Made by a program: the position numbers and the translations under genes. Under the pieces are notes generated by a model. The model was given only the letters and a program-made list of their open reading frames with translations, did not search any database and had not been told where the DNA came from. From an uncultured Dehalococcoidales bacterium (GTDB lineage Bacteria > Chloroflexota > Dehalococcoidia > GIF9 > AB-539-J10): a stretch of DNA of 58,021 nucleotides. Numbering within the stretch: the first letter of the stretch is position 1; each line of letters starts with the position of its first letter. The stretch covers positions 1 through 58,021 of the forward strand of contig CAZDXE010000004.1 in NCBI GenBank assembly GCA_964509565.1. Direction: 5' to 3'. Positions 27,827-36,637 of the stretch are shown here, piece by piece.

Positions 27827-28882
27827 TCACTTCCTAGGTTTGGGATGGAATACTGTTAGCCCAGGCGGCGAAACCACTTTCCTTTCCTCACTCAGCCGCC
27901 CAACTATTTCAATTGTCTTAGTGATGAATTCCGTCATACCCTGTCCATTAAGTGCTGAAATGAACAAGAGAGATGCATCTAAGTAATCAAAACTTTGCCT
28001 CACATCATGCAATCGAGATTTAACCTGCGGTAGATCCACTTTGTTCACAGCTATAATCTTTGCCTTCTGACATAAATCGGTTTTATATGCAGCTAACTCC
28101 TCATGTAACCTGGTAAAATCATCGACCATAGTTGCTGACATGCCATCCAGCAAATAAACTAGGAGCTTAGTTCTCTCAATATGTCGTAGAAATTCATATC
28201 CCAATTCCTTACTGACATGTGCACCTGCGGTAAGTGCTGGCATCTCAGCCACCACAAAATCTCTTCTGCTACCTCGGATAACTCCTAAAACTGGCTGCCG
28301 TGTAGTAAAGGGGTAATCCGCTATTCTAGGTCTAGCCTCTGTTATAGCAGATAGCAAAGTGGATTTACCTGAATTCGAGTAACCAATAATACACATATCA
28401 GTGACAAGTTTTAGTTCAAGGCTAATTTGGTACTCCTCTCCCAATCCCCCTTTCCCAGCTACCCTAGGTTCCTGATTTGCCCCCGTAGCAAAGTGCACAT
28501 TCCCTAACCCACCCCTACCCCCCCTCGCTACTAATACTTTTCCTTCAGAAACAACCATGTCAGCTAAAGGTTTTCTTTCCCCTAGTTCAGTTCTAATAGA
28601 AACCATAGTCCCGACAGGCACAGAAATGCTTAAGTCCATACCTTTTTTACCATGCTTACTTTCTTTGCCACCTCCGTGGCCAGATTCAGCTATGAATTTT
28701 CCTCTTTGTTTAAGCAAAGTTAAATCAAACAAAGAGGAATCAGCCACAATGAAAATATTCCCACCATCTCCACCATCACCTCCATCTGGACCTCCCAACG
28801 GGATATATTTCTCATGAAGAAAACTAGCCAATCCATTTCCTCCACTTCCACCCTTTACTATGATTTCTATTTTGTCTATCAT
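27827..28882 (-). CDS. obgE: GTPase Obg/CgtA (short; G3 motif altered)
   Basis: Gly-rich Obg fold GGPDGGDGG.GG, G1 GYSNSGKS, G2 YPFTT and G4 NKVD; G3 reads EMPA. Confidence 0.92.
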   Translation of the reverse strand: MIDKIEIIVKGGSGGNGLASFLHEKYIPLGGPDGGDGGDGGNIFIVADSSLFDLTLLKQRGKFIAESGHGGGKESKHGKKGMDLSISVPVGTMVSIRTELGERKPLADMVVSEGKVLVARGGRGGLGNVHFATGANQEPRVAGKGGLGEEYQISLELKLVTDMCIIGYSNSGKSTLLSAITEARPRIADYPFTTRQPVLGVIRGSRRDFVVAEMPALTAGAHVSKELGYEFLRHIERTKLLVYLLDGMSATMVDDFTRLHEELAAYKTDLCQKAKIIAVNKVDLPQVKSRLHDVRQSFDYLDASLLFISALNGQGMTEFITKTIEIVGRLSEERKVVSPPGLTVFHPKPRK

Positions 28883-29045
28883 AAGGAATTGTAGTTATTA
28901 TAAACTAATAATAGTCTTAATAAGAAGAGTTGATTAAGAAGAGATAAGGAACAAAATATCAACTTTGTAATGTATAGATCTCAACAATTTAGTTTCATTG
29001 TGAGCAATATTCATCTACATATTTTTAACATTCCCTTACGGGATT
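28883..29045. other. Probable chromosomal replication origin oriC
   Basis: AT-rich gap downstream of dnaA; degenerate DnaA boxes TCATCTACA (29011-19), TTTTTAACA (29022-30) and TGTGAGCAA (28999-29007); trio-like TAATAATAG (28906-14) and TAAGAAGAG x2 (28921, 28935); apparent GC-skew flip. Confidence 0.65.
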
Positions 29046-30368
29046 TTAATGCGAGCTGATTTTCTCATTAATCTCTAATATTTGGCGGCGTAATTTGAGG
29101 TTAGTAGTTATTTGGGCAGCGATTTTTTTATAACCATAGATGATTGTAGCGTGGCTTCTATTACCTAGTACCTTGCCAATTTCAGTGAAAGAGCAGTTAT
29201 CTTCCTCTTTCATAAGATACATTGCAATTTGCCGCGCCAGGGCAATTTTCCTGTCTCTCGCTTTACCGCTTAGTTCCTCGCCGGGGAGGTTAAAATAATC
29301 AGCCACTGCTTGTATTATTGAATTTTTCCCCTGCTTACCAGTAGCGCTTGTTAATAACATGTTAACTATTTGTGGCGTGAGTTCTGATCTGGTTAATTTG
29401 GCTCGAGCTGTTAAGTATATCAGAGCGCCCTCAAGATGGCGGATATTTCCCCACGTACGTTTCGCTAGAAGCTGCAGTACTTCGTCAGAGGCCGATAGCA
29501 TCATTTCCTGAGCTTTAGTGCCCAGTATAGAGAGGCGTGTTTCAAAATCGGGTGGCTGAATGGAGACAATGAGGCCCCATTCAAGATGTGATTTGAACTT
29601 GTCGCTAAGCAGGGCCATGTCTTTAGGATGACGGTCGGCGGTCATGACGATCTGACGGCTATTGTTGTATAGTTCGTTAAAAATTTGAAAGAAGCATTGT
29701 AAGGTCTGTTTTTTATCAGTTATGAATTGTATATCATCGAATAGAAAAAGGTGAGTATCTTTAAATTTGTCACGGAAATCTTCAACCTGTTTTTGTTTGA
29801 TAGCTCTTATAAATTCGTTGGTGAATTGCTCAGCGCTGGTATAAGTTACGCACAGTCCATTGTCTACTGCTCTGTGTCCGATAGCGTGTAGCAGATGTGT
29901 TTTGCCCTGCCCAGTGCTGCTGTAAATGAAAAGAGGGTTGTAAGTATGCCCCGGGTTTTCAACTGTTTCCACTGTAGCGGCGTAAGCTAAACGGTTGCAA
30001 TCACCAACGATAAAATTACCAAAAGTGTATCTCGAGTTAAACCTATCTATCCTGACCTTGGTGCTTGTTCCACCATCAGTTTGGCTGGCGCTGGCTAAAG
30101 AGCTGCTTTGTAGTTGCTCTTTGTTGTGAACGATAAATTGGACGTCTATATCTCTTACCGTAATTTGGGTTAAGGTTTTTTTTACTAGAGAATGGAGACG
30201 TTTAATTAACCACTCTGCCACGAAGGCATTTGGAACTCCAACTACGAAAACGCCACTCTGGAAACTTATGCCATAGCTTTTCTCAAGCCATGTAGTATAA
30301 TTTGCTCTGCTGACCTGGAGTTGAAGTTCTCCCAGCGCCCTCTCCCAGATTTCCTTTGCTGAATCCAA
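29046..30368 (-). CDS. dnaA: Chromosomal replication initiator DnaA
   Basis: YTFGNFIVG.CN, YNPLFIY..TGQGKTHLL, DDIQF, WGL, ARQIAMYL and domain IV RSHAT. Confidence 0.97.
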   Translation of the reverse strand: MDSAKEIWERALGELQLQVSRANYTTWLEKSYGISFQSGVFVVGVPNAFVAEWLIKRLHSLVKKTLTQITVRDIDVQFIVHNKEQLQSSSLASASQTDGGTSTKVRIDRFNSRYTFGNFIVGDCNRLAYAATVETVENPGHTYNPLFIYSSTGQGKTHLLHAIGHRAVDNGLCVTYTSAEQFTNEFIRAIKQKQVEDFRDKFKDTHLFLFDDIQFITDKKQTLQCFFQIFNELYNNSRQIVMTADRHPKDMALLSDKFKSHLEWGLIVSIQPPDFETRLSILGTKAQEMMLSASDEVLQLLAKRTWGNIRHLEGALIYLTARAKLTRSELTPQIVNMLLTSATGKQGKNSIIQAVADYFNLPGEELSGKARDRKIALARQIAMYLMKEEDNCSFTEIGKVLGNRSHATIIYGYKKIAAQITTNLKLRRQILEINEKISSH

Positions 30369-30524: not shown

Positions 30525-31475
30525 GTGGAAACACGTATCGTTTTTATGGGTACTCCACGAATTGCTGCGACCATATTGGAAGTTTTGATTCGCAGCCCAT
30601 ATCAGGTGATTGTTGTGTATACTCAGCCTGATAGGCCATCTGGCAGAAAGCGAGAGCTTACTTCATCTCCAGTAAAGGAACTGGCCATAAAACATCGGAT
30701 TCCCGTTGTGCAACCAGAGACTCTTAAGTCAGCGGAAGTGGTAAGGGAATTGGCTAACTTCAAGTCGGAACTGATTATTGTCGCCGCTTTTGGGCAGATT
30801 CTTTCCAGGGAGGTGTTGTCTTTGCCTAAGTTGGGTTGTCTTAATGTGCATCCCTCGCTATTGCCTAGACACCGAGGCCCATCTCCAGTGGCTGATGCCC
30901 TGCTTTGCGGAGAGCTATTTACAGGGGTTACTATCATGGTGATGGATGAGGGTCTGGACAGCGGGCCAATTTTAACTCAGAGCAGGGTAGCTATCTCCTC
31001 CATAGATACCACTGGCTCTCTTACGGATAAATTAGCTCATGCGGGGGCTGAGCTTTTGATGGAAACTCTACCTAAATGGCTTGGTGGAGAGTTTGAAGCG
31101 GAACCTCAAGATGAGAGCCAGGTTACTTATAGCAGATTGATAAGCAACAAAGATGGTGAGATAGATTGGTATTTACCGGCAATAGAACTGCGGCGGCAAG
31201 TAAGGGCCTTTAATCCCTGGCCAAGCTGTTATTCTTGGTGGCGTGGCAAACGACTTAAAATACATGAAGCTGCTCTCCCGAGCGAACCAGCAAGGGGTAG
31301 AACAGGAGAAGTAGTTTCTTTGCGAGAGATGCCCAACGTTGGCGTGGTGACTGGAAATGGCATCCTGGGCCTTTGCCAGATTCAGATGGAAGGGAAACGT
31401 AAGATGCTGGTTGCTGATTTTGTACGGGGGCAAGGTAATTTTATTGGTTCTATTCTAGGCAAAAGTAGTGTATGA
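30525..31475 (+). CDS. fmt: Methionyl-tRNA formyltransferase
   Basis: FMGTP, YTQPDRPSGR, NVHPSLLPRHRG, LDSGP and RAFNPWP. Confidence 0.96.
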   Translation: METRIVFMGTPRIAATILEVLIRSPYQVIVVYTQPDRPSGRKRELTSSPVKELAIKHRIPVVQPETLKSAEVVRELANFKSELIIVAAFGQILSREVLSLPKLGCLNVHPSLLPRHRGPSPVADALLCGELFTGVTIMVMDEGLDSGPILTQSRVAISSIDTTGSLTDKLAHAGAELLMETLPKWLGGEFEAEPQDESQVTYSRLISNKDGEIDWYLPAIELRRQVRAFNPWPSCYSWWRGKRLKIHEAALPSEPARGRTGEVVSLREMPNVGVVTGNGILGLCQIQMEGKRKMLVADFVRGQGNFIGSILGKSSV

Positions 31476-31563
31476 ATTTTCCTTACATGGTTCATTCCAG
31501 CATTATGGTAAAAAATATCATGGGGGGGGGCTTAGCAGAAAACCTGGGTTGGGCTACTCTCTT

Positions 31564-32322
31564 TCAGTCTGGGTCCTCAGCGTTATGCCATTCCGTTACG
31601 ATGCTTGACCAGACTTGGCCTATTGCTGCTTCCAGCACCACCTTACGAGGATTGGGTATGGTTAGCAGGGGTGGCAAAGTACGGTTGTCAAACTGGCGCA
31701 GGAATGAGCACTGTTTCCGAAGTGAAAGTATTGTTGTCCATGCGCCTCCATAGACGATGTAATCTATGGTATGGCTATGAGCTTCGAATTGTTCTCGCAT
31801 ATGGATACAAATGTGGGTTAAAAAAAGTTCTATTTGTTTTTCTCGGTGGCGACGGAAGCGTTGCTGTGAGGAGCCGCCTTTTTTGTGTCGTGCATGGACT
31901 AGTCCGGTTCCGACTTTACTGGTAATGAGACTTTCCCCTTGATAAAGGCTGATGGCATATGCCCCCAAACGTACTAGAACCAGTGCAATCCTCAAATTGT
32001 GTTTGAGCAGGCAACGTAATGGCTCGGCGTCATAGCCATAAGTGAAATATTTTTCCATGATAGGGAACGGGGGTGAAATTAGATATTTCCGTGACGAGCC
32101 TGAAAAGAAAACCGCTCCAGTTTTCGAGGAGGTAGTGCACTCAACCAGGCTGGAGGGGATGTGTTGAGAGGCGCACGCTTTTTCGAGGAGGTTTTTGACT
32201 TCGGGCAATGGTAGTTCAAACGGTATGTATAGCGACGAAGCCGTATCAATAGTTGCTTCTATTTCATCAAGAAATTTGAGCATCTTTATCCTGCTAAGCG
32301 AATACCTTTTTGATATTAGCAT
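31564..32322 (-). CDS. acVLRF1 family (Vms1/ANKZF1-like) release factor / peptidyl-tRNA hydrolase
   Basis: LVLVRLGAYAI...SKVG...HARHKKGGSSQQRFRRHRE, with GGSSQ at 31864-31878; later YIVYGG; AGGAG RBS. Confidence 0.85.
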   Translation of the reverse strand: MLISKRYSLSRIKMLKFLDEIEATIDTASSLYIPFELPLPEVKNLLEKACASQHIPSSLVECTTSSKTGAVFFSGSSRKYLISPPFPIMEKYFTYGYDAEPLRCLLKHNLRIALVLVRLGAYAISLYQGESLITSKVGTGLVHARHKKGGSSQQRFRRHREKQIELFLTHICIHMREQFEAHSHTIDYIVYGGAWTTILSLRKQCSFLRQFDNRTLPPLLTIPNPRKVVLEAAIGQVWSSIVTEWHNAEDPD

Positions 32323-32372
32323 TGGAATATGTACTCCTGCTCAAGAATTTACAGCAATGAGCCACTTTATAA

Positions 32373-34760
32373 TTATAGATTGATAATGGTTACCCCATCG
32401 CCGCCCTCATCCTGCTCCCCAGGATGGGAGGATTTGACTAGGGGGTGAGAAACGACAAGGTCCCTGACGATGTTGCGCACAGTACCAGTGCCAAACCCAT
32501 GGATGACACGGACCTTTGTTAAATTAGCTAGGGAGGCGTTATTGAGGTAACTGTCAAGTACCCACTCTATCTCAGCAGCTCTTTTCCCCCGGAGGTCAAG
32601 TTCAACAGGAACTGTTCGTCTGCGCATCTCTTTGGTTACCGAGGTGATTTTTGAGTTTGCCTCACTGGGTAAGGATGTTACCTTTTCTACTCTATCGAAA
32701 CCTAAACTAACTTTAGTCAGCCCTACTTGAATCTCGACCTGATGTGTCTTCTCAGATATTGATAGCACTGTTGCTTGAAGGTTCGTTTCTTTTAGCCGAA
32801 CTGTATCTCCTGGAACAATTTTATTCTCGTTCATTATTGCCACGTTTGTTTTTTTGGCTGCCTTTGCCTGCCAATCCTCGTTCTTCAGCCGCTCCTCTGC
32901 AGCAGCCAGAGCTTTCGCGGCCTGGTCAATTCCCTCTCTTGATTTCCTCTTACGTAATTCTGCCTTAGCGTGGTGGATTTCTTTCTGTAGCTGTGCAGCT
33001 TCATGCATAATATTGTCGCGGGTTTCTTGGATAACCTTTTGTCCCTCCGTTCTTAATTGTTGAAGCTCGTTTTCTAGTTCTTTGTTTCGTTGTTCCGCTT
33101 CAGATAGTTCCTTTTCCAGATTATGGGTGAGTGTCGCAACTAGTTGTTTCTCTCTCGCCAAGTCAGCAAGCAAAGTCTCCATGTTTTGTGTTCCTTTTGA
33201 GAGCATCTCCTTGGCGCTAGTGATAATTTCGGGGGGTAGACCCAGGTGGGAAGCGGTAGCCAGGGCATTACTGCCGCCAGGTATACCTATCGTTAGGTGG
33301 TAGGTTGGTGTCAGTGTAGTCAAGTCGAAGTCAAGCGAAGCGTTTTGCATATTTGAAGTCACATGTGCAAAAGGTTTCAGGTCATTGTAATGTGTGGTAG
33401 CGATGGTCATCGTCCCCTTTGATAAGAAATGGAGCAGAATAGAACGAGCTAGAGCAGAGCCTTCCACTGGATCAGTGCTAGTGCCCAACTCGTCGAGGAG
33501 CACGAGAGTTCTTTCTGTGGCACTTTTGATGATACGTACAATATTACCTATGTGCCAGCCGAATGTGGAAAGTGAATGCTCAATGTTTTGCTCATCACCG
33601 GTATCGGCGAATACCCCATCAAAAATAGGAATGCAACTTTCTCCTGAAGCGGGAATTGGTATGCCTGCTTGCGTCATCAAGGTCAGCAAGCCAATTGTCT
33701 TAAGTGCTACTGTTTTACCACCTGTGTTAGGCCCTGTAATAACAAGAATAGAGAAATCCTTCCCTACATCCACTGAAAGTGGCACTGCCTTTTCTGCTAG
33801 TAATGGATGCCTGGCTTCGACAAGTTTAAGTACACCAATCCGCTTGCCCGTGGCGTCTTTGGCCTTCTCGTCGAAGGTGGTGATTGTAGCTTCCGTAGCC
33901 CGCGCGCTTCTTGCATATTTTGCCTTAGATAGCGCCAGATCTAGCTTAGCAACCAGAGCTATGTTGTGTGAGATTTCGATCTCGTGTGCTCCTATTTCGT
34001 TACTGAGATTCCGGAGAATTCTCTCTATCTCGCGTTGTTCTTTTATGGTAAGTTCTCGCAGTTCGTTCCCTAGCTCTACGGTGGTCCATGGTTCAACAAA
34101 TACAGTGGCGCCAGTGTTGGATATATCATGAACGGTGCCCTTTATTCCCTTTCTACGTTCGACCTTGAGTGGAATAACGTATCTTCCCTCTCTCTGAGTA
34201 ACAATAGACTCCTGGATTATTTTCTGTCCCTTAGGTGACCTGATTATGGCTTCCAAACGCTTTAGCAGTTGTTCACGAGCTCTTCTGAATCCTTGTCTCA
34301 TCATGGTCAGTTCAGGCGAAGCCGAATCCAGTAGTTCACCGTTTGGTGTGATGCATTTGCCAATATCTTTCTCGGTCTGGTGCAATTCAACAATATCAGC
34401 GGCGATGGCCCAAAGCAGGGGGAGTTCATCGGACAGCTTTCTGAGACTGTTGCGTAGTTGGCAGATAGCAGCCAGGCTTTGTTGAATTTCTATGAGGGTT
34501 CGTGGTTCTAGGATTTTACCTCGCGCTGCCATCTTTACTGGCCCTCTAATATCACGAATTCCCCCAATAGAAAACTCTGGCCTCAGTGAGAGGAGATGAC
34601 GCGCCTCAGCCGACTGTTTTAATAGCAGAGATATCTGGTCGTAATCCAGAAGAGGTTGAAGATTGATGGCTAGTTCATGGCTGGCTGAAAACGAGGTAAA
34701 TCTGGCAAGTATCTCCCTGACGCGGGGAAATTCGACCATTTCCAGGCTTTTATCATCCAT
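32373..34760 (-). CDS. mutS2: MutS2 endonuclease / ribosome-collision factor (Smr domain)
   Basis: GATVFVEP, ARHPLL, TGPNTGGKT, LLDELGTSTDP, coiled coil, KOW and Smr (LDLRG...IHGFGTG). Confidence 0.95.
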   Translation of the reverse strand: MDDKSLEMVEFPRVREILARFTSFSASHELAINLQPLLDYDQISLLLKQSAEARHLLSLRPEFSIGGIRDIRGPVKMAARGKILEPRTLIEIQQSLAAICQLRNSLRKLSDELPLLWAIAADIVELHQTEKDIGKCITPNGELLDSASPELTMMRQGFRRAREQLLKRLEAIIRSPKGQKIIQESIVTQREGRYVIPLKVERRKGIKGTVHDISNTGATVFVEPWTTVELGNELRELTIKEQREIERILRNLSNEIGAHEIEISHNIALVAKLDLALSKAKYARSARATEATITTFDEKAKDATGKRIGVLKLVEARHPLLAEKAVPLSVDVGKDFSILVITGPNTGGKTVALKTIGLLTLMTQAGIPIPASGESCIPIFDGVFADTGDEQNIEHSLSTFGWHIGNIVRIIKSATERTLVLLDELGTSTDPVEGSALARSILLHFLSKGTMTIATTHYNDLKPFAHVTSNMQNASLDFDLTTLTPTYHLTIGIPGGSNALATASHLGLPPEIITSAKEMLSKGTQNMETLLADLAREKQLVATLTHNLEKELSEAEQRNKELENELQQLRTEGQKVIQETRDNIMHEAAQLQKEIHHAKAELRKRKSREGIDQAAKALAAAEERLKNEDWQAKAAKKTNVAIMNENKIVPGDTVRLKETNLQATVLSISEKTHQVEIQVGLTKVSLGFDRVEKVTSLPSEANSKITSVTKEMRRRTVPVELDLRGKRAAEIEWVLDSYLNNASLANLTKVRVIHGFGTGTVRNIVRDLVVSHPLVKSSHPGEQDEGGDGVTIINL

Positions 34761-35062
34761 TGTAAATGTGTTCTGCTTAACGTTGTAATTTATATTGTAT
34801 CATTGTATCACCTTGAGTTATCTACGCTGAGCCCACTCTTTGCCCTGAATGTACTGGAATAGTTTTCGTTTGTTAGGCTGCTATGTAATAGATGAGTATC
34901 ACGATAATTCCTACGGTGAGGAGTGGGGGCATATTATTTCCAGTAATATAAAATGTCTGTTGCGGGGTTTGCAATGTTAATTAAAATTCCCTAAGCTAGG
35001 TAGCATGACGTATTTTAATCCTTTGGGTATTATGCCTGGAGGATTTTGTAGAGGAGGCAATA

Positions 35063-36637
35063 GTGAAAGCAAGCACAGTAGCTCAGATGAGGGATTTAGA
35101 CAGGTCTGCCATGGAGAAATTTGGCATCACGGACGATCTTTTGATGGAGAATGCTGGACAGGCAGTGTATTTCGTTATATTAAAAGAATTTGGGGTGAAG
35201 AATAAGAAGTTTGTAGTTTTCTGTGGTGGTGGTAATAATGGTGGGGATGGGCTTGTTATTGCCAGGAAGATTCACTCCAGCGGCGGAGAGGTGAAGGTCT
35301 TCCTCTTAGGTGACGAAACTAAATTCAAAGGGGCAACAGGAAGGAACTTCGAAATAGTATCGAAGATGCCCATAGAAATATCTAAAATTGGCTCAATTGA
35401 CGCTATAAAATCTGTTGTTCTTCATTCTGATGCTGTCGTGGATGCTATATTTGGCACAGGCCTCGCCAGGGAAGTTGCTGGTATATATAGGGATGTAATT
35501 CAATTGATAAATGAGAGCAAAAAAATAGTATTCAGCGTTGATATACCTTCAGGCATAAATGGCGATACCGGGGAAGTGATGGGTGCAGGGGTGAAGGCGG
35601 CTTACACTATAACCTTCGGGCTTCCCAAAATAGGAAATATGCTTTACCCGGGATGTGAGTACTGCGGGAAGTTGTATGTCTCGCATATATCCTTCCCACC
35701 TTCGCTCTACAATGCGGGTTCTGTAAAAGTGGAAATCAACGTTCCAATAGAACTTCCCGCAAGAAATCGAGATTCCCATAAAGGAGATTTTGGGGAGGCT
35801 CTCTTTATTGCTGGCGCCTCAAGCTATCTGGGGGCACCATATTTCTCTGCTTTATCTTTCCTTAAAACTGGGGGAGGCTATTCTCGTTTAGCTGCACCGC
35901 TGTCCATTTCAGCATTTCTGGCAAATAAAGGAAGTGAAATTGTTCTTGCTCCTCAGAAAGAGATAGGCTCAGGTAGCATAGCGTTGGAAAATGAGGATGA
36001 ATTGCTTAAACTCTCAGAGAGGGTGGATATGGTGGTTATAGGGCCGGGTGTTTCCCTGGATGAGGAGACGCAAGAATTGGTAAGGCGGCTGGCACAGGAG
36101 ATAGCGAAACCTCTGCTTATAGACGGCGATGGAATTACCGCTGTCGCCCAGGATACAGGGGTAATCAAGAAGAGAAAGGCGGAAACAATTCTTACACCTC
36201 ATCTGGGCGAGATGTCGAAAATCGCAGGTATGGGGATAGGCGAGATAAACAAAAACAAAATAGAGGTTCTGCAGCGCACAGCAAAGGAACTCGATGCTAT
36301 TATTGTCTTGAAAGGTGCTCACTCTCTCATAGGCTACCCCGATGGGACTGTTTACATTAATCTGAGTGGAAACCCAGGTATGGCAACGGCTGGGAGTGGT
36401 GACGTTTTGACAGGAACAATCGCCGCTATGTTCGGTTTGGGGCTATCGCTCAGAGATGCCGTAAGGATGGGCGTCTTTATTCATGGATTCTCAGGGGACT
36501 TAGCGGCAAAGGGCAAGGGCGAGGATGGCATAACTGCCCAGGACATACTGGATTATCTCCCTATGGCGATGAAGAAGTACAGGGAGGACTTCGAAAGAAT
36601 TTCCGAGAATCTTTATGAAAGTGTTTTTATTGTCTAA
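35063..36637 (+). CDS. nnr: Bifunctional NAD(P)H-hydrate epimerase/dehydratase
   Basis: LMENAG, GGGNNGGDG, DAIFGTG, VDIPSG, HKGDFG, LTPHLGE and ATAGSGDVL. Confidence 0.95.
   Translation: MKASTVAQMRDLDRSAMEKFGITDDLLMENAGQAVYFVILKEFGVKNKKFVVFCGGGNNGGDGLVIARKIHSSGGEVKVFLLGDETKFKGATGRNFEIVSKMPIEISKIGSIDAIKSVVLHSDAVVDAIFGTGLAREVAGIYRDVIQLINESKKIVFSVDIPSGINGDTGEVMGAGVKAAYTITFGLPKIGNMLYPGCEYCGKLYVSHISFPPSLYNAGSVKVEINVPIELPARNRDSHKGDFGEALFIAGASSYLGAPYFSALSFLKTGGGYSRLAAPLSISAFLANKGSEIVLAPQKEIGSGSIALENEDELLKLSERVDMVVIGPGVSLDEETQELVRRLAQEIAKPLLIDGDGITAVAQDTGVIKKRKAETILTPHLGEMSKIAGMGIGEINKNKIEVLQRTAKELDAIIVLKGAHSLIGYPDGTVYINLSGNPGMATAGSGDVLTGTIAAMFGLGLSLRDAVRMGVFIHGFSGDLAAKGKGEDGITAQDILDYLPMAMKKYREDFERISENLYESVFIV

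Follow-up and report, generated by a model that had tools for sequence, protein, structure and literature searches.

The window examined here, a stretch of 58,021 nucleotides (nt) from an uncultured member of the Dehalococcoidales, corresponds to contig C4 of a 1.38-Mb assembly that comprises 108 contigs and is 96.5% complete. On its minus strand it carries mutS2 and, directly downstream, a gene of the acVLRF1 family, a bacterial relative of the eukaryotic factor Vms1. The linkage of the two genes recurs in related genomes far beyond chance, and the pair is a candidate for a bacterial route of ribosome-associated quality control (RQC). An earlier note on this DNA had described mutS2 followed by a co-oriented VLRF1 gene after a gap of 50 bp, with an AGGAG ribosome-binding site and no obvious terminator between the genes; the open reading frames (ORFs), the spacer sequence and a consensus scan agree with that description (Table 1), and the operon-like layout is upheld. 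On the minus strand of the spacer, the scan returned neither terminator-like nor promoter-like sites. Between positions 31300 and 35100 it found five terminator-like sites, all on the plus strand, and minus-strand promoter-like sites were confined to a single one 5' of mutS2 and some within mutS2, the totals of both kinds being no higher than in shuffled sequences. An Rfam scan of positions 31300-35200 gave a single chance match (E 0.74).

The family assignments of the earlier note, mutS2 with KOW and Smr domains and a VLRF1 gene behind it, were confirmed by Pfam, by the NCBIfam model TIGR01069 and by alignment to structures in the PDB. MutS2 matched TIGR01069 over its full length with 786.7 bits (cut-off 400), and its residues 2-795 align with residues 2-784 of the chains named 'Endonuclease MutS2' in 8qpp, 8r55 and 7qv3 (E 4e-149). 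Pfam detected the domains MutS_V, MSSS (SH3/KOW-type) and Smr, giving a makeup of ATPase core, coiled coil, SH3/KOW-type domain and Smr domain in which the MutS mismatch domain is absent. Across 55 linked MutS2 sequences, the Walker A residues G343, P344, N345, G347, G348, K349 and T350 and the Walker B residues D423 and E424 are invariant. The MSSS domain aligns with the KOW region of a PDB MutS2 chain, and the Smr motifs LDLRG and HGxGTG, which are common to the window protein and the PDB chains, were found in 52 and 50, respectively, of 54 linked full-length MutS2 sequences. According to the available part of Park et al. 2023 (PMC10897456), MutS2 of Bacillus subtilis has the same DLR variant of the DxH motif and does not cleave mRNA; its KOW and Smr domains bind collided ribosomes, which are split by the ATPase. 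By orthology, the window MutS2 would likewise act as a splitter of collided ribosomes.

For the downstream gene, the earlier note had asked for confirmation of the acVLRF1 assignment with a hidden Markov model (HMM). Pfam PF18859, whose cut-off is 27.1 bits, matched residues 111-241 over profile positions 2-128 of 130 with a score of 90.4 (E 1.5e-25), and weaker matches to baeRF_family10 and eRF1_2 were obtained; the NCBIfam model NF041024 (acVLRF1_NCBI), however, stayed below its cut-off of 125 with 103.5 bits. Judged by sequence, the linked subfamily is divergent from this NCBI model. Despite the sub-cut-off score of the window protein, NCBI names the close relative P0081 'Vms1/Ankzf1 family peptidyl-tRNA hydrolase', a name found among the public annotations of relatives beside hypothetical protein and 'peptide subunit release factor 1 (eRF1)'. 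An AlphaFold2 model calculated from an alignment of 98 sequences (pLDDT 91.6, pTM 0.85) consists of an N-terminal domain and an eRF1-type middle domain, in which a loop (residues 140-150) is followed by a long helix (151-182). The middle domain has the RNase H fold of eRF1, the N-terminal extension is short and a C-terminal domain of the Pelota type is absent, as described for acVLRF1. In structure comparisons the model matched aRF1, eRF1, Pelota/Dom34, Balon and yeast Vms1 (Table 1), and distant matches to actin/ParM-type ATPases had Z ~8; Foldseek placed aRF1 first (E 7e-11) and returned Vms1 with E 1e-4. Both domains align to yeast Vms1 residues 13-397. The N domain of eRF1/aRF1 is the counterpart of the N-terminal part both in structural alignment and in profile comparison, where the family profile from position 5 onward aligns from aRF1 residue 8, so this part may be a reduced eRF1 N domain rather than a new extension. 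Pfam found release-factor-type domains only, and the zinc finger, ankyrin repeats and VIM of Vms1/ANKZF1 are absent from the 252 amino acids (aa); the window protein is thus outside the eukaryotic eVLRF-1 family and belongs only to the wider VLRF-1 clade.

The middle-domain loop HKKGGSSQQRF spans residues 146-156, with GGSSQ at 149-153. Across 98 sequences there is no variation at G138, G140, H143, H146, G149, G150, S152, R155 and R158, and S151 is nearly invariant. Because profile alignment sets the family consensus GGsSq opposite GGQSQ of aRF1, Ser151 takes the position of the canonical release-factor glutamine, and Q153 lies two residues beyond it. The glutamine that follows two glycines in class-1 release factors is therefore replaced by Ser151, and the window protein displays the GGxSQ loop that defines acVLRF1 (PMC6514570). 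The segment G150-S-S-Q153 fits the GxxQ context reported for Q295 of Vms1 in the available part of a review (PMC7026593). A role of H143 and H146 as a nuclease pair was considered and dropped, as unlinked and Actinomycetota members have Lys or Val in place of H143, and aRF1 also carries the second His.

Table 1. Features of the mutS2-acVLRF1 locus, fold matches of the acVLRF1 model, loop census and genes at related loci (L, loci in other genomes; rmsd, root-mean-square deviation).
Feature	Position or sample	Strand	Basis or result
mutS2, 795 aa	32373..34760	minus	ORF; TIGR01069; end-to-end alignment with PDB MutS2 chains
acVLRF1, MutS2-linked subfamily (type A), 252 aa	31564..32322	minus	ORF; Pfam PF18859; model; tree clade
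50-nt spacer between mutS2 and acVLRF1	32323..32372	minus	sequence; AGGAG 11 nt ahead of the acVLRF1 ATG
Walker A GPNTGGKT, MutS2 residues 343-350	33711..33734	minus	conservation
MSSS SH3/KOW-type domain, MutS2 residues 650-687	32700..32813	minus	PF20297, E 2.1e-7, 30.9 bits vs 26.8
Smr domain with LDLRG and HGFGTG, MutS2 residues 721-795	32376..32600	minus	Pfam Smr, E 2.7e-19
N-terminal domain of acVLRF1, residues ~1-107	32002..32322	minus	model; structural and profile alignments
Conserved loop and start of long helix of acVLRF1, residues 138-158, GTG..H..HKKGGSSQQRFRR	31849..31911	minus	conservation
Candidate promoter-like site 5' of mutS2 (TTGCAA, 18 nt, TATATT)	34945..34974	minus	consensus match 9/12 only; no commoner than in shuffles, not evidence
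YjeF-type NAD(P)HX repair gene, divergent neighbour	35063-36637	plus
fmt, convergent neighbour	30525-31475	plus
dnaA, neighbour	29046-30368	minus
Fold match aRF1 8hku	middle domain		Z 15.8, rmsd 2.7, 130 residues
Fold match eRF1/aRF1	model 9-238 on chain 12-272, both domains		Z 14-15, rmsd 12-16, 211-227 residues; hinge needed
Fold match yeast Vms1 on 60S, 6r84_R	model 5-245, single rigid body		Z 11.2, rmsd 4.2, 178 residues
Fold match Pelota/Dom34	middle domain		Z 11-12.7, rmsd 2.6-2.9, 110-121 residues
Fold match Balon (bacterial A-site factor)	both domains		Z ~11-12, rmsd 10.5-11.7, 210-224 residues
Loop census, type A (window subfamily)	85 rows		GGSSQ 67; GGSSSQ (shifted by one) 7; GGSSA 11
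Loop census, type B	13 rows		GGSSQ 4; GGRSQ 6; Glu replacing Gln 2; GGSSSK 1
Loop census, type C, unlinked Dehalococcoidia	18 rows		canonical GGQS 8; GGWSQ 3; GGSS 7
Loop census, Actinomycetota	7 rows		GGSSAN 4; GGQSQ 1; GGWSQ 2
Pfam-less gene behind mutS2, ~305 aa	L149:240-1148; L162:2056-2982		53% identity
Pfam-less gene behind mutS2, ~210-220 aa	L151:2358-3029; L158:246-875		82% identity
GNAT acetyltransferase genes of mutS2-less loci in one small type A clade	L072:5277-5996; L076:5208-5906; L078:5277-5996
ABC-F type ATPase (two ABC_tran and ABC_tran_Xtn linker)	L136:4816-6414; L137:4829-6427		ribosome-associated ATPase beside acVLRF1

The pairing of the two genes is conserved well beyond the window genome. 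Among the 41 closest genomes, all of the same order, 31 contain acVLRF1 and 19 contain MutS2 above the cut-off; in 14 genomes they stand side by side in the same orientation, and in four both are present but apart. The acVLRF1 copies of these 14 genomes are precisely those with the highest similarity to that of the window (at least 174 bits), and the other 16, with at most 124 bits, have no mutS2 nearby. A pattern scan of public genome contigs yielded 158 relatives, and the best 80 of these 158, all from metagenome-assembled genomes (MAGs) or single-cell genomes of Dehalococcoidia or Chloroflexota, were used for counting. In 71 of them acVLRF1 is immediately preceded by the C-terminus of a co-oriented mutS2, five lack mutS2 despite ample upstream DNA and four are cut by contig ends. 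As estimated from alignment ends, the spacer of the 71 linked loci measures 30-34 nt in 38 cases and at most 113 nt in 65; the three longest contain a DUF2779 gene, an IS200-like gene or a small ORF on the opposite strand. The gene before mutS2 belongs to 24 families in 39 assessable loci (nine loci in the largest family) and the gene after acVLRF1 to 27 families in 41 (six in the largest), so that the pair was kept while its surroundings changed. Loss of adjacency in relatives, which the earlier note had named as a refutation of its proposal, is thus not what was found for the window subfamily. Around unlinked acVLRF1 genes, no other conserved neighbour was detected in 18 loci, the adjacent genes being varied metabolic genes.

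A maximum likelihood tree of 123 acVLRF1 members (quick search, support from the Shimodaira-Hasegawa-like approximate likelihood ratio test, SH-aLRT, only) unites the window subfamily, type A, in one clade of 85 rows (SH-aLRT 99), comprising all 78 linked Dehalococcoidia rows, five in which the linkage was lost and two that could not be assessed. Type B forms a separate, long-branched clade (support 99), and type C rows belong to neither of these clades. Type A-linked MutS2 proteins also form a single clade (support 100) that includes four MutS2 whose genomes have VLRF1 missing or elsewhere; rows L171, L173, L178 and L182, which have a branch length of 3 and are probably ORFs read from the wrong strand, were left out of the reading of this tree. 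The linkage in Dehalococcoidia is therefore essentially one old event retained with few losses, and it persists at identities down to 40% for VLRF1 and 48% for MutS2. A further case was found in Actinomycetota. In a Gaiellaceae MAG (L138, genome G366), a mutS2 gene that is in six frame segments in the assembly ends just before acVLRF1, and strong acVLRF1 matches in the same class were restricted to two of 101 genomes, G366 and G459, both with mutS2 as the gene just before it. In G459, mutS2 is intact (MutS_V, Smr) and its TGA overlaps the ATG of acVLRF1 (TGATG). The linked VLRF1 of Actinomycetota fall into a different clade (support 98) outside the linked clade of Dehalococcoidia, as does the MutS2 of G459, whose best identity (44%) is to an unlinked MutS2; on sequence evidence this pair is a second, phylogenetically separate occurrence. 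Table 1 of PMC11633108, in the part of the paper available, lists mutS2 in 0 of 3,213 Actinobacteriota, indicating that the rare MutS2 in this phylum arrives together with VLRF1. The tight pairing over deep divergence, the shuffled flanks, the second occurrence with overlapping codons and the lack of any other conserved neighbour make a functional coupling of MutS2 with the linked VLRF1 subfamily likely.

In the window genome, a search for NFACT_N as marker of RqcH gave no match, and likewise none above the cut-off was obtained in the 41 relatives of the order, where the weak matches were proteins of ~280 aa; in the class sample RqcH was found in 0 of 151 genomes. The same search was positive for B. 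subtilis and for 9-10 further genomes used as controls, and among 201 genomes sampled from the phylum it detected RqcH in 98 (one unpublished genome counted), all of them outside the class, and in 0 of the nine with strong acVLRF1. The survey of rqcH called for by the earlier note bears on its suggestion of a release route alongside or instead of RqcH/Pth: RqcH was not found anywhere in the class sample, but Pth is encoded in the window genome, as are tmRNA and SmpB, and any release route would work alongside Pth rather than in its place. Action instead of RqcH fits the phyletic data, yet the absence of RqcH is largely a class-wide trait and 59 genomes with MutS2 have neither factor. An ArfB-sized gene with an RF-1 domain was not found in the window genome, the only two RF-1 matches being full-size ORFs of 349 and 364 aa, and bVLRF1 (PF18826) had no match there, but none in any control genome either. 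A stand-alone Smr-domain protein (~62-115 aa) occurs in 30 of the 41 relatives, with or without MutS2, and none is among the window-genome matches listed.

Taken with the orthology of MutS2 and the fold of its partner, these data lead us to propose, tentatively and with slightly less than even confidence, that mutS2 and the acVLRF1 gene behind it constitute a ribosome quality-control module of two genes, with MutS2 splitting ribosomes and VLRF1 clearing 50S-peptidyl-tRNA complexes. MutS2 would bind collided ribosomes via its KOW-type and Smr domains and its ATPase would split the stalled one, which would leave a 50S subunit with peptidyl-tRNA. The linked VLRF1 would then bind this complex in the vacant A-site/peptidyl-transferase region via its eRF1-type middle domain and sever the nascent chain from the tRNA, either by ester hydrolysis or by cutting the tRNA 3' end like Vms1/ANKZF1, so that subunit and tRNA would be freed without alanine tailing of the RqcH type. 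This order of splitting and release, already put forward in the earlier note, is the most economical mechanism and may apply, although we stop a little short of expecting it. The data themselves show the identities of the two genes, the fold, the conservation of the linkage and the lack of any RqcH match, whereas on which substrate, in what order and by which chemistry the linked VLRF1 acts is what we infer. For Vms1/ANKZF1 itself the chemistry has been described in two ways, as a Q295-dependent hydrolase (available part of PMC7026593) and as a nuclease whose removal of CCA gives rise to a 2',3'-cyclic phosphate (PMC11317155).

Comparison with known systems shows both how such a module could work and where it would differ. 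Yeast Vms1 and human ANKZF1 (eVLRF-1) belong to the same VLRF-1 clade according to the available part of Burroughs and Aravind 2019 (PMC6514570), share the two-domain core and the relative orientation of the domains with the window protein (6r84_R, Z 11.2) and have a loop of the GxxQ type; the window VLRF1 would likewise act after a dedicated splitting factor. It differs from them in its length of 252 aa, without zinc finger, ankyrin, coiled-coil or VIM, in a genomic context without ubiquitin/Cdc48 and with no Rqc2/RqcH partner found, and in the dispensability of the loop glutamine in whole linked clades. With the RQC of B. subtilis (MutS2, RqcH, RqcP/YlmH and Pth) the window genome shares a full-length orthologous MutS2 with the same DLR/HGxG variant of Smr as well as Pth, whereas RqcH was not found in the class sample, and the release-factor-like gene attached to mutS2 is undescribed for Bacillus in the available parts of PMC10897456 and PMC11317155. 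In the available part of PMC11633108, 97% of the genomes with RqcH are reported to have MutS2, a strong co-occurrence. Pelota/Dom34 with ABCE1 in archaea and eukaryotes similarly combines a protein of the eRF1 superfamily, with a matching middle-domain fold, with a subunit-separating ABC-type ATPase; the ATPase family is another one, the conserved GG loop of the window VLRF1 is mostly accompanied by Gln, and MutS2 senses collisions from the outside of the ribosome, not from the factor-binding site (PMC10897456, available part). The other acVLRF1 (PF18859) in Dehalococcoidia and Actinomycetota share family and fold, but unlinked members have varied neighbours and often GGQSQ or GGWSQ loops, whereas linked members always have GGSS.

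Several observations weigh against the proposed module. In the class sample of 151 genomes, MutS2 was found in 99 and acVLRF1 in 47; both occur in 40 genomes, adjacent to each other in 13 of these and apart in 27. Seven of the 47 genomes with acVLRF1 lack MutS2, as do 13 of the 31 acVLRF1-bearing relatives among the closest genomes, and subfamilies of unlinked acVLRF1 exist. Conversely, 59 of the 99 MutS2 genomes contain neither acVLRF1 nor RqcH, so MutS2 does not need an acVLRF1 partner. Since the linked MutS2 share a single clade, the 71 linked loci are not 71 independent observations, and a Shine-Dalgarno-like motif precedes acVLRF1 in just 13 of 64 linked loci, showing that the ribosome-binding site is not conserved. 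The window genome encodes Pth, the reported releaser of RQC products in B. subtilis, and a literature search turned up no biochemical or genetic test of any acVLRF1. As to co-transcription, parts of the stretch are contained in seven lake-water metatranscriptome runs, and RNA-library contigs from four lake-water runs match both genes with at least 99% identity (one mismatch in one contig). One of 263 nt (depth 2.8) spans positions 32163-32425 across the spacer without mismatch, a weak hint of co-transcription only and no proof of a single transcript, because these are low-depth assembled contigs, possibly from carried-over DNA, and a contig is not a transcript. Positions 34788-35000, 5' of mutS2, were not covered by RNA-library contigs and cannot be read as a transcript boundary. 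A predicted complex of MutS2 residues 48-795 with VLRF1 residues 1-250, each with its own alignment, scored 0.01 and 0.20 against a mark of 0.32, which is uninformative on binding either way.

The wide occurrence of the acVLRF1 family without MutS2 would suit a free-standing rescue or release factor like ArfB or Pth that acts independently of MutS2, the operon reflecting mere co-regulation of stress-related translation genes. The canonical GGQ in eight of the 18 type C rows, all unlinked, the lack of an ArfB-sized gene in the window genome and the position of two Actinomycetota copies beside an ABC-F ATPase instead of mutS2 also point that way. Such tight pairing is rarely preserved by co-regulation alone, however, and the retention of the pair as both flanks change, with short or overlapping spacers, and its recurrence in a second phylum in which MutS2 is otherwise rare render this explanation unlikely for the linked subfamily.

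The loop sequences raise further difficulties for a module with a catalytic VLRF1. Ser occupies the position of the canonical GGQ glutamine in all 80 of 80 MutS2-linked rows, and canonical GGQ is confined to unlinked members of the family. The later glutamine, corresponding to that of Vms1, is missing as well from 11 of the 85 type A rows, and none of the four rows in the linked Actinomycetota clade has it. The glutamine of GGSSQ, which the earlier note had chosen as mutation target, is consequently neither the canonical one nor indispensable in linked clades. The main rival on the question of catalysis, which we regard as improbable, is that the linked VLRF1 is a non-catalytic cofactor similar to Pelota/Dom34 that, entering the empty A site of the stalled 70S ribosome or holding the 50S subunit, aids MutS2 in splitting or subunit separation as Pelota does with the ATPase ABCE1, and leaves release to Pth. 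Besides the loop and the presence of Pth, it is favoured by the fold, as the model matches Balon (Z 11-12) and the middle domains of Pelota/Dom34 (Z 11-12.7) about as well as Vms1 and the N-terminal domain aligns with that of eRF1/aRF1, and by the existence of both catalytic and inactive, subunit-separating members in the eRF1 family (Park et al., PMC10897456, Discussion, available part). Against it, GGSSQ in 67 of 85 type A rows and the invariant GG, S152, R155 and R158 amount to more conservation than an inactive spacer seems to require, the third, GTPase/ABCE1-facing domain of Pelota is absent, the rigid-body likeness is to 60S-bound Vms1, and MutS2 of B. subtilis needs no such partner to split ribosomes in vitro (PMC10897456, available part). 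A bolder form of the module, in which a sensor/splitter and a dedicated terminator without the release-factor glutamine were assembled at least twice, in Dehalococcoidia and Actinomycetota, to work without RqcH tagging by severing the tRNA 3' end like ANKZF1, appears doubtful to us; if it were true, tRNA cleavage of the Vms1 type and the need for tRNA end repair would be a bacterial invention. The loop contrast, with GGQ in some unlinked and GGSS in all linked members, offers a natural experiment to distinguish between hydrolysis, tRNA cutting and mere binding.

Older literature, in the parts available, describes MutS2 of Thermus and Helicobacter as a recombination-suppressing DNA endonuclease, and a pair acting on DNA, with the RNase H-fold partner as nucleic-acid helper, would accord with the RNase H-like middle domain and the distant matches to actin/ParM-type ATPases as well as with the distance of only ~2 kb between the locus and dnaA. 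Such a function is highly improbable, as the partner belongs to the release-factor superfamily by sequence and fold and has the conserved GG loop and an Arg-rich helix, the Smr domain has DLR instead of the catalytic DxH, and dnaA was not a conserved neighbour of the pair in the flank survey.

Both protein families were known before, and what is new within the literature searched is their linkage and its implication. Neither was found in that search, which did not extend to the supplementary neighbourhood data of PMC6514570: the words 'MutS2' and 'Smr' are absent from the main text of this paper, which defined the VLRF1 family, in the part available, 'neighborhood' and 'operon' are absent from Park et al. 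2023 (PMC10897456), the available part of PMC11633108 gives counts of MutS2 and RqcH with no link to VLRF1, and PMC11317155 mentions MutS2 and Vms1 together in its introduction only. The last step is the least understood of bacterial RQC. No dedicated termination factor for it is known in bacteria, and in Bacillus Pth does this job (2024 paper, PMC11317155); the linked VLRF1 may be such a dedicated factor for the final step. A Vms1 relative attached to a bacterial splitting factor, in a large uncultured class in whose sampled genomes RqcH was not found and in a second phylum, constitutes a concrete, testable protein pair. If the proposed module is real, bacteria possess an RQC branch in the style of Vms1 that works without tagging, the role of MutS2 becomes clearer in the many genomes that have MutS2 without RqcH, and the finding has a bearing on how the eukaryotic Vms1 step arose.

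Further observations concern genomes and loci that depart from the common arrangement. In one family of the class, the genomes that are complete in a single contig are devoid of acVLRF1. In 19 assessable genomes with MutS2 and without VLRF1, no VLRF1-like gene lies behind mutS2 (HMM E 1e-3; hhalign probability <1%), G021 having been left out because its contig ends 19 bp past mutS2. The gene at this position encodes CofD in three cases, MgsA in two, BipA in one, a DinB-family protein in one and unidentified products in the rest; two family-specific genes without Pfam match, not VLRF1-like, lie directly behind mutS2 in Dehalococcoidia of this kind (Table 1). Three type A loci without mutS2, which belong to one small clade, have a gene for a GNAT acetyltransferase of ~235 aa on the same strand, 4-95 nt upstream of VLRF1. 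In two Actinomycetota loci, acVLRF1 is followed after 87-136 nt by a gene for a 532-aa ATPase of the ABC-F type on the same strand. An ORF of 453 aa behind mutS2 (L070:6001-7362) joins a type A VLRF1 to Peptidase_M23, and a type C protein of 439 aa (L128:3101-4420) has ~200 extra N-terminal residues; each may be real or an artefact of assembly or start-codon choice. At L133:3950-4728 (G232), VLRF1 behind an intact mutS2 is broken into ORFs of 80 and 167 aa and may be a pseudogene or reflect a sequencing error. The spacers of several linked loci (L085, L086, L101 and L104) contain a G+C-rich hairpin, and the largest linked clade has a conserved spacer of ~34 nt with no clear Shine-Dalgarno motif and a possible GTG start 12 nt before the ATG. 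In the window itself, dnaA, with Obg just downstream, adjoins the minimum of the cumulative GC skew (~28500-29500), and the replication origin probably lies near dnaA, ~2 kb from the mutS2-acVLRF1 pair.

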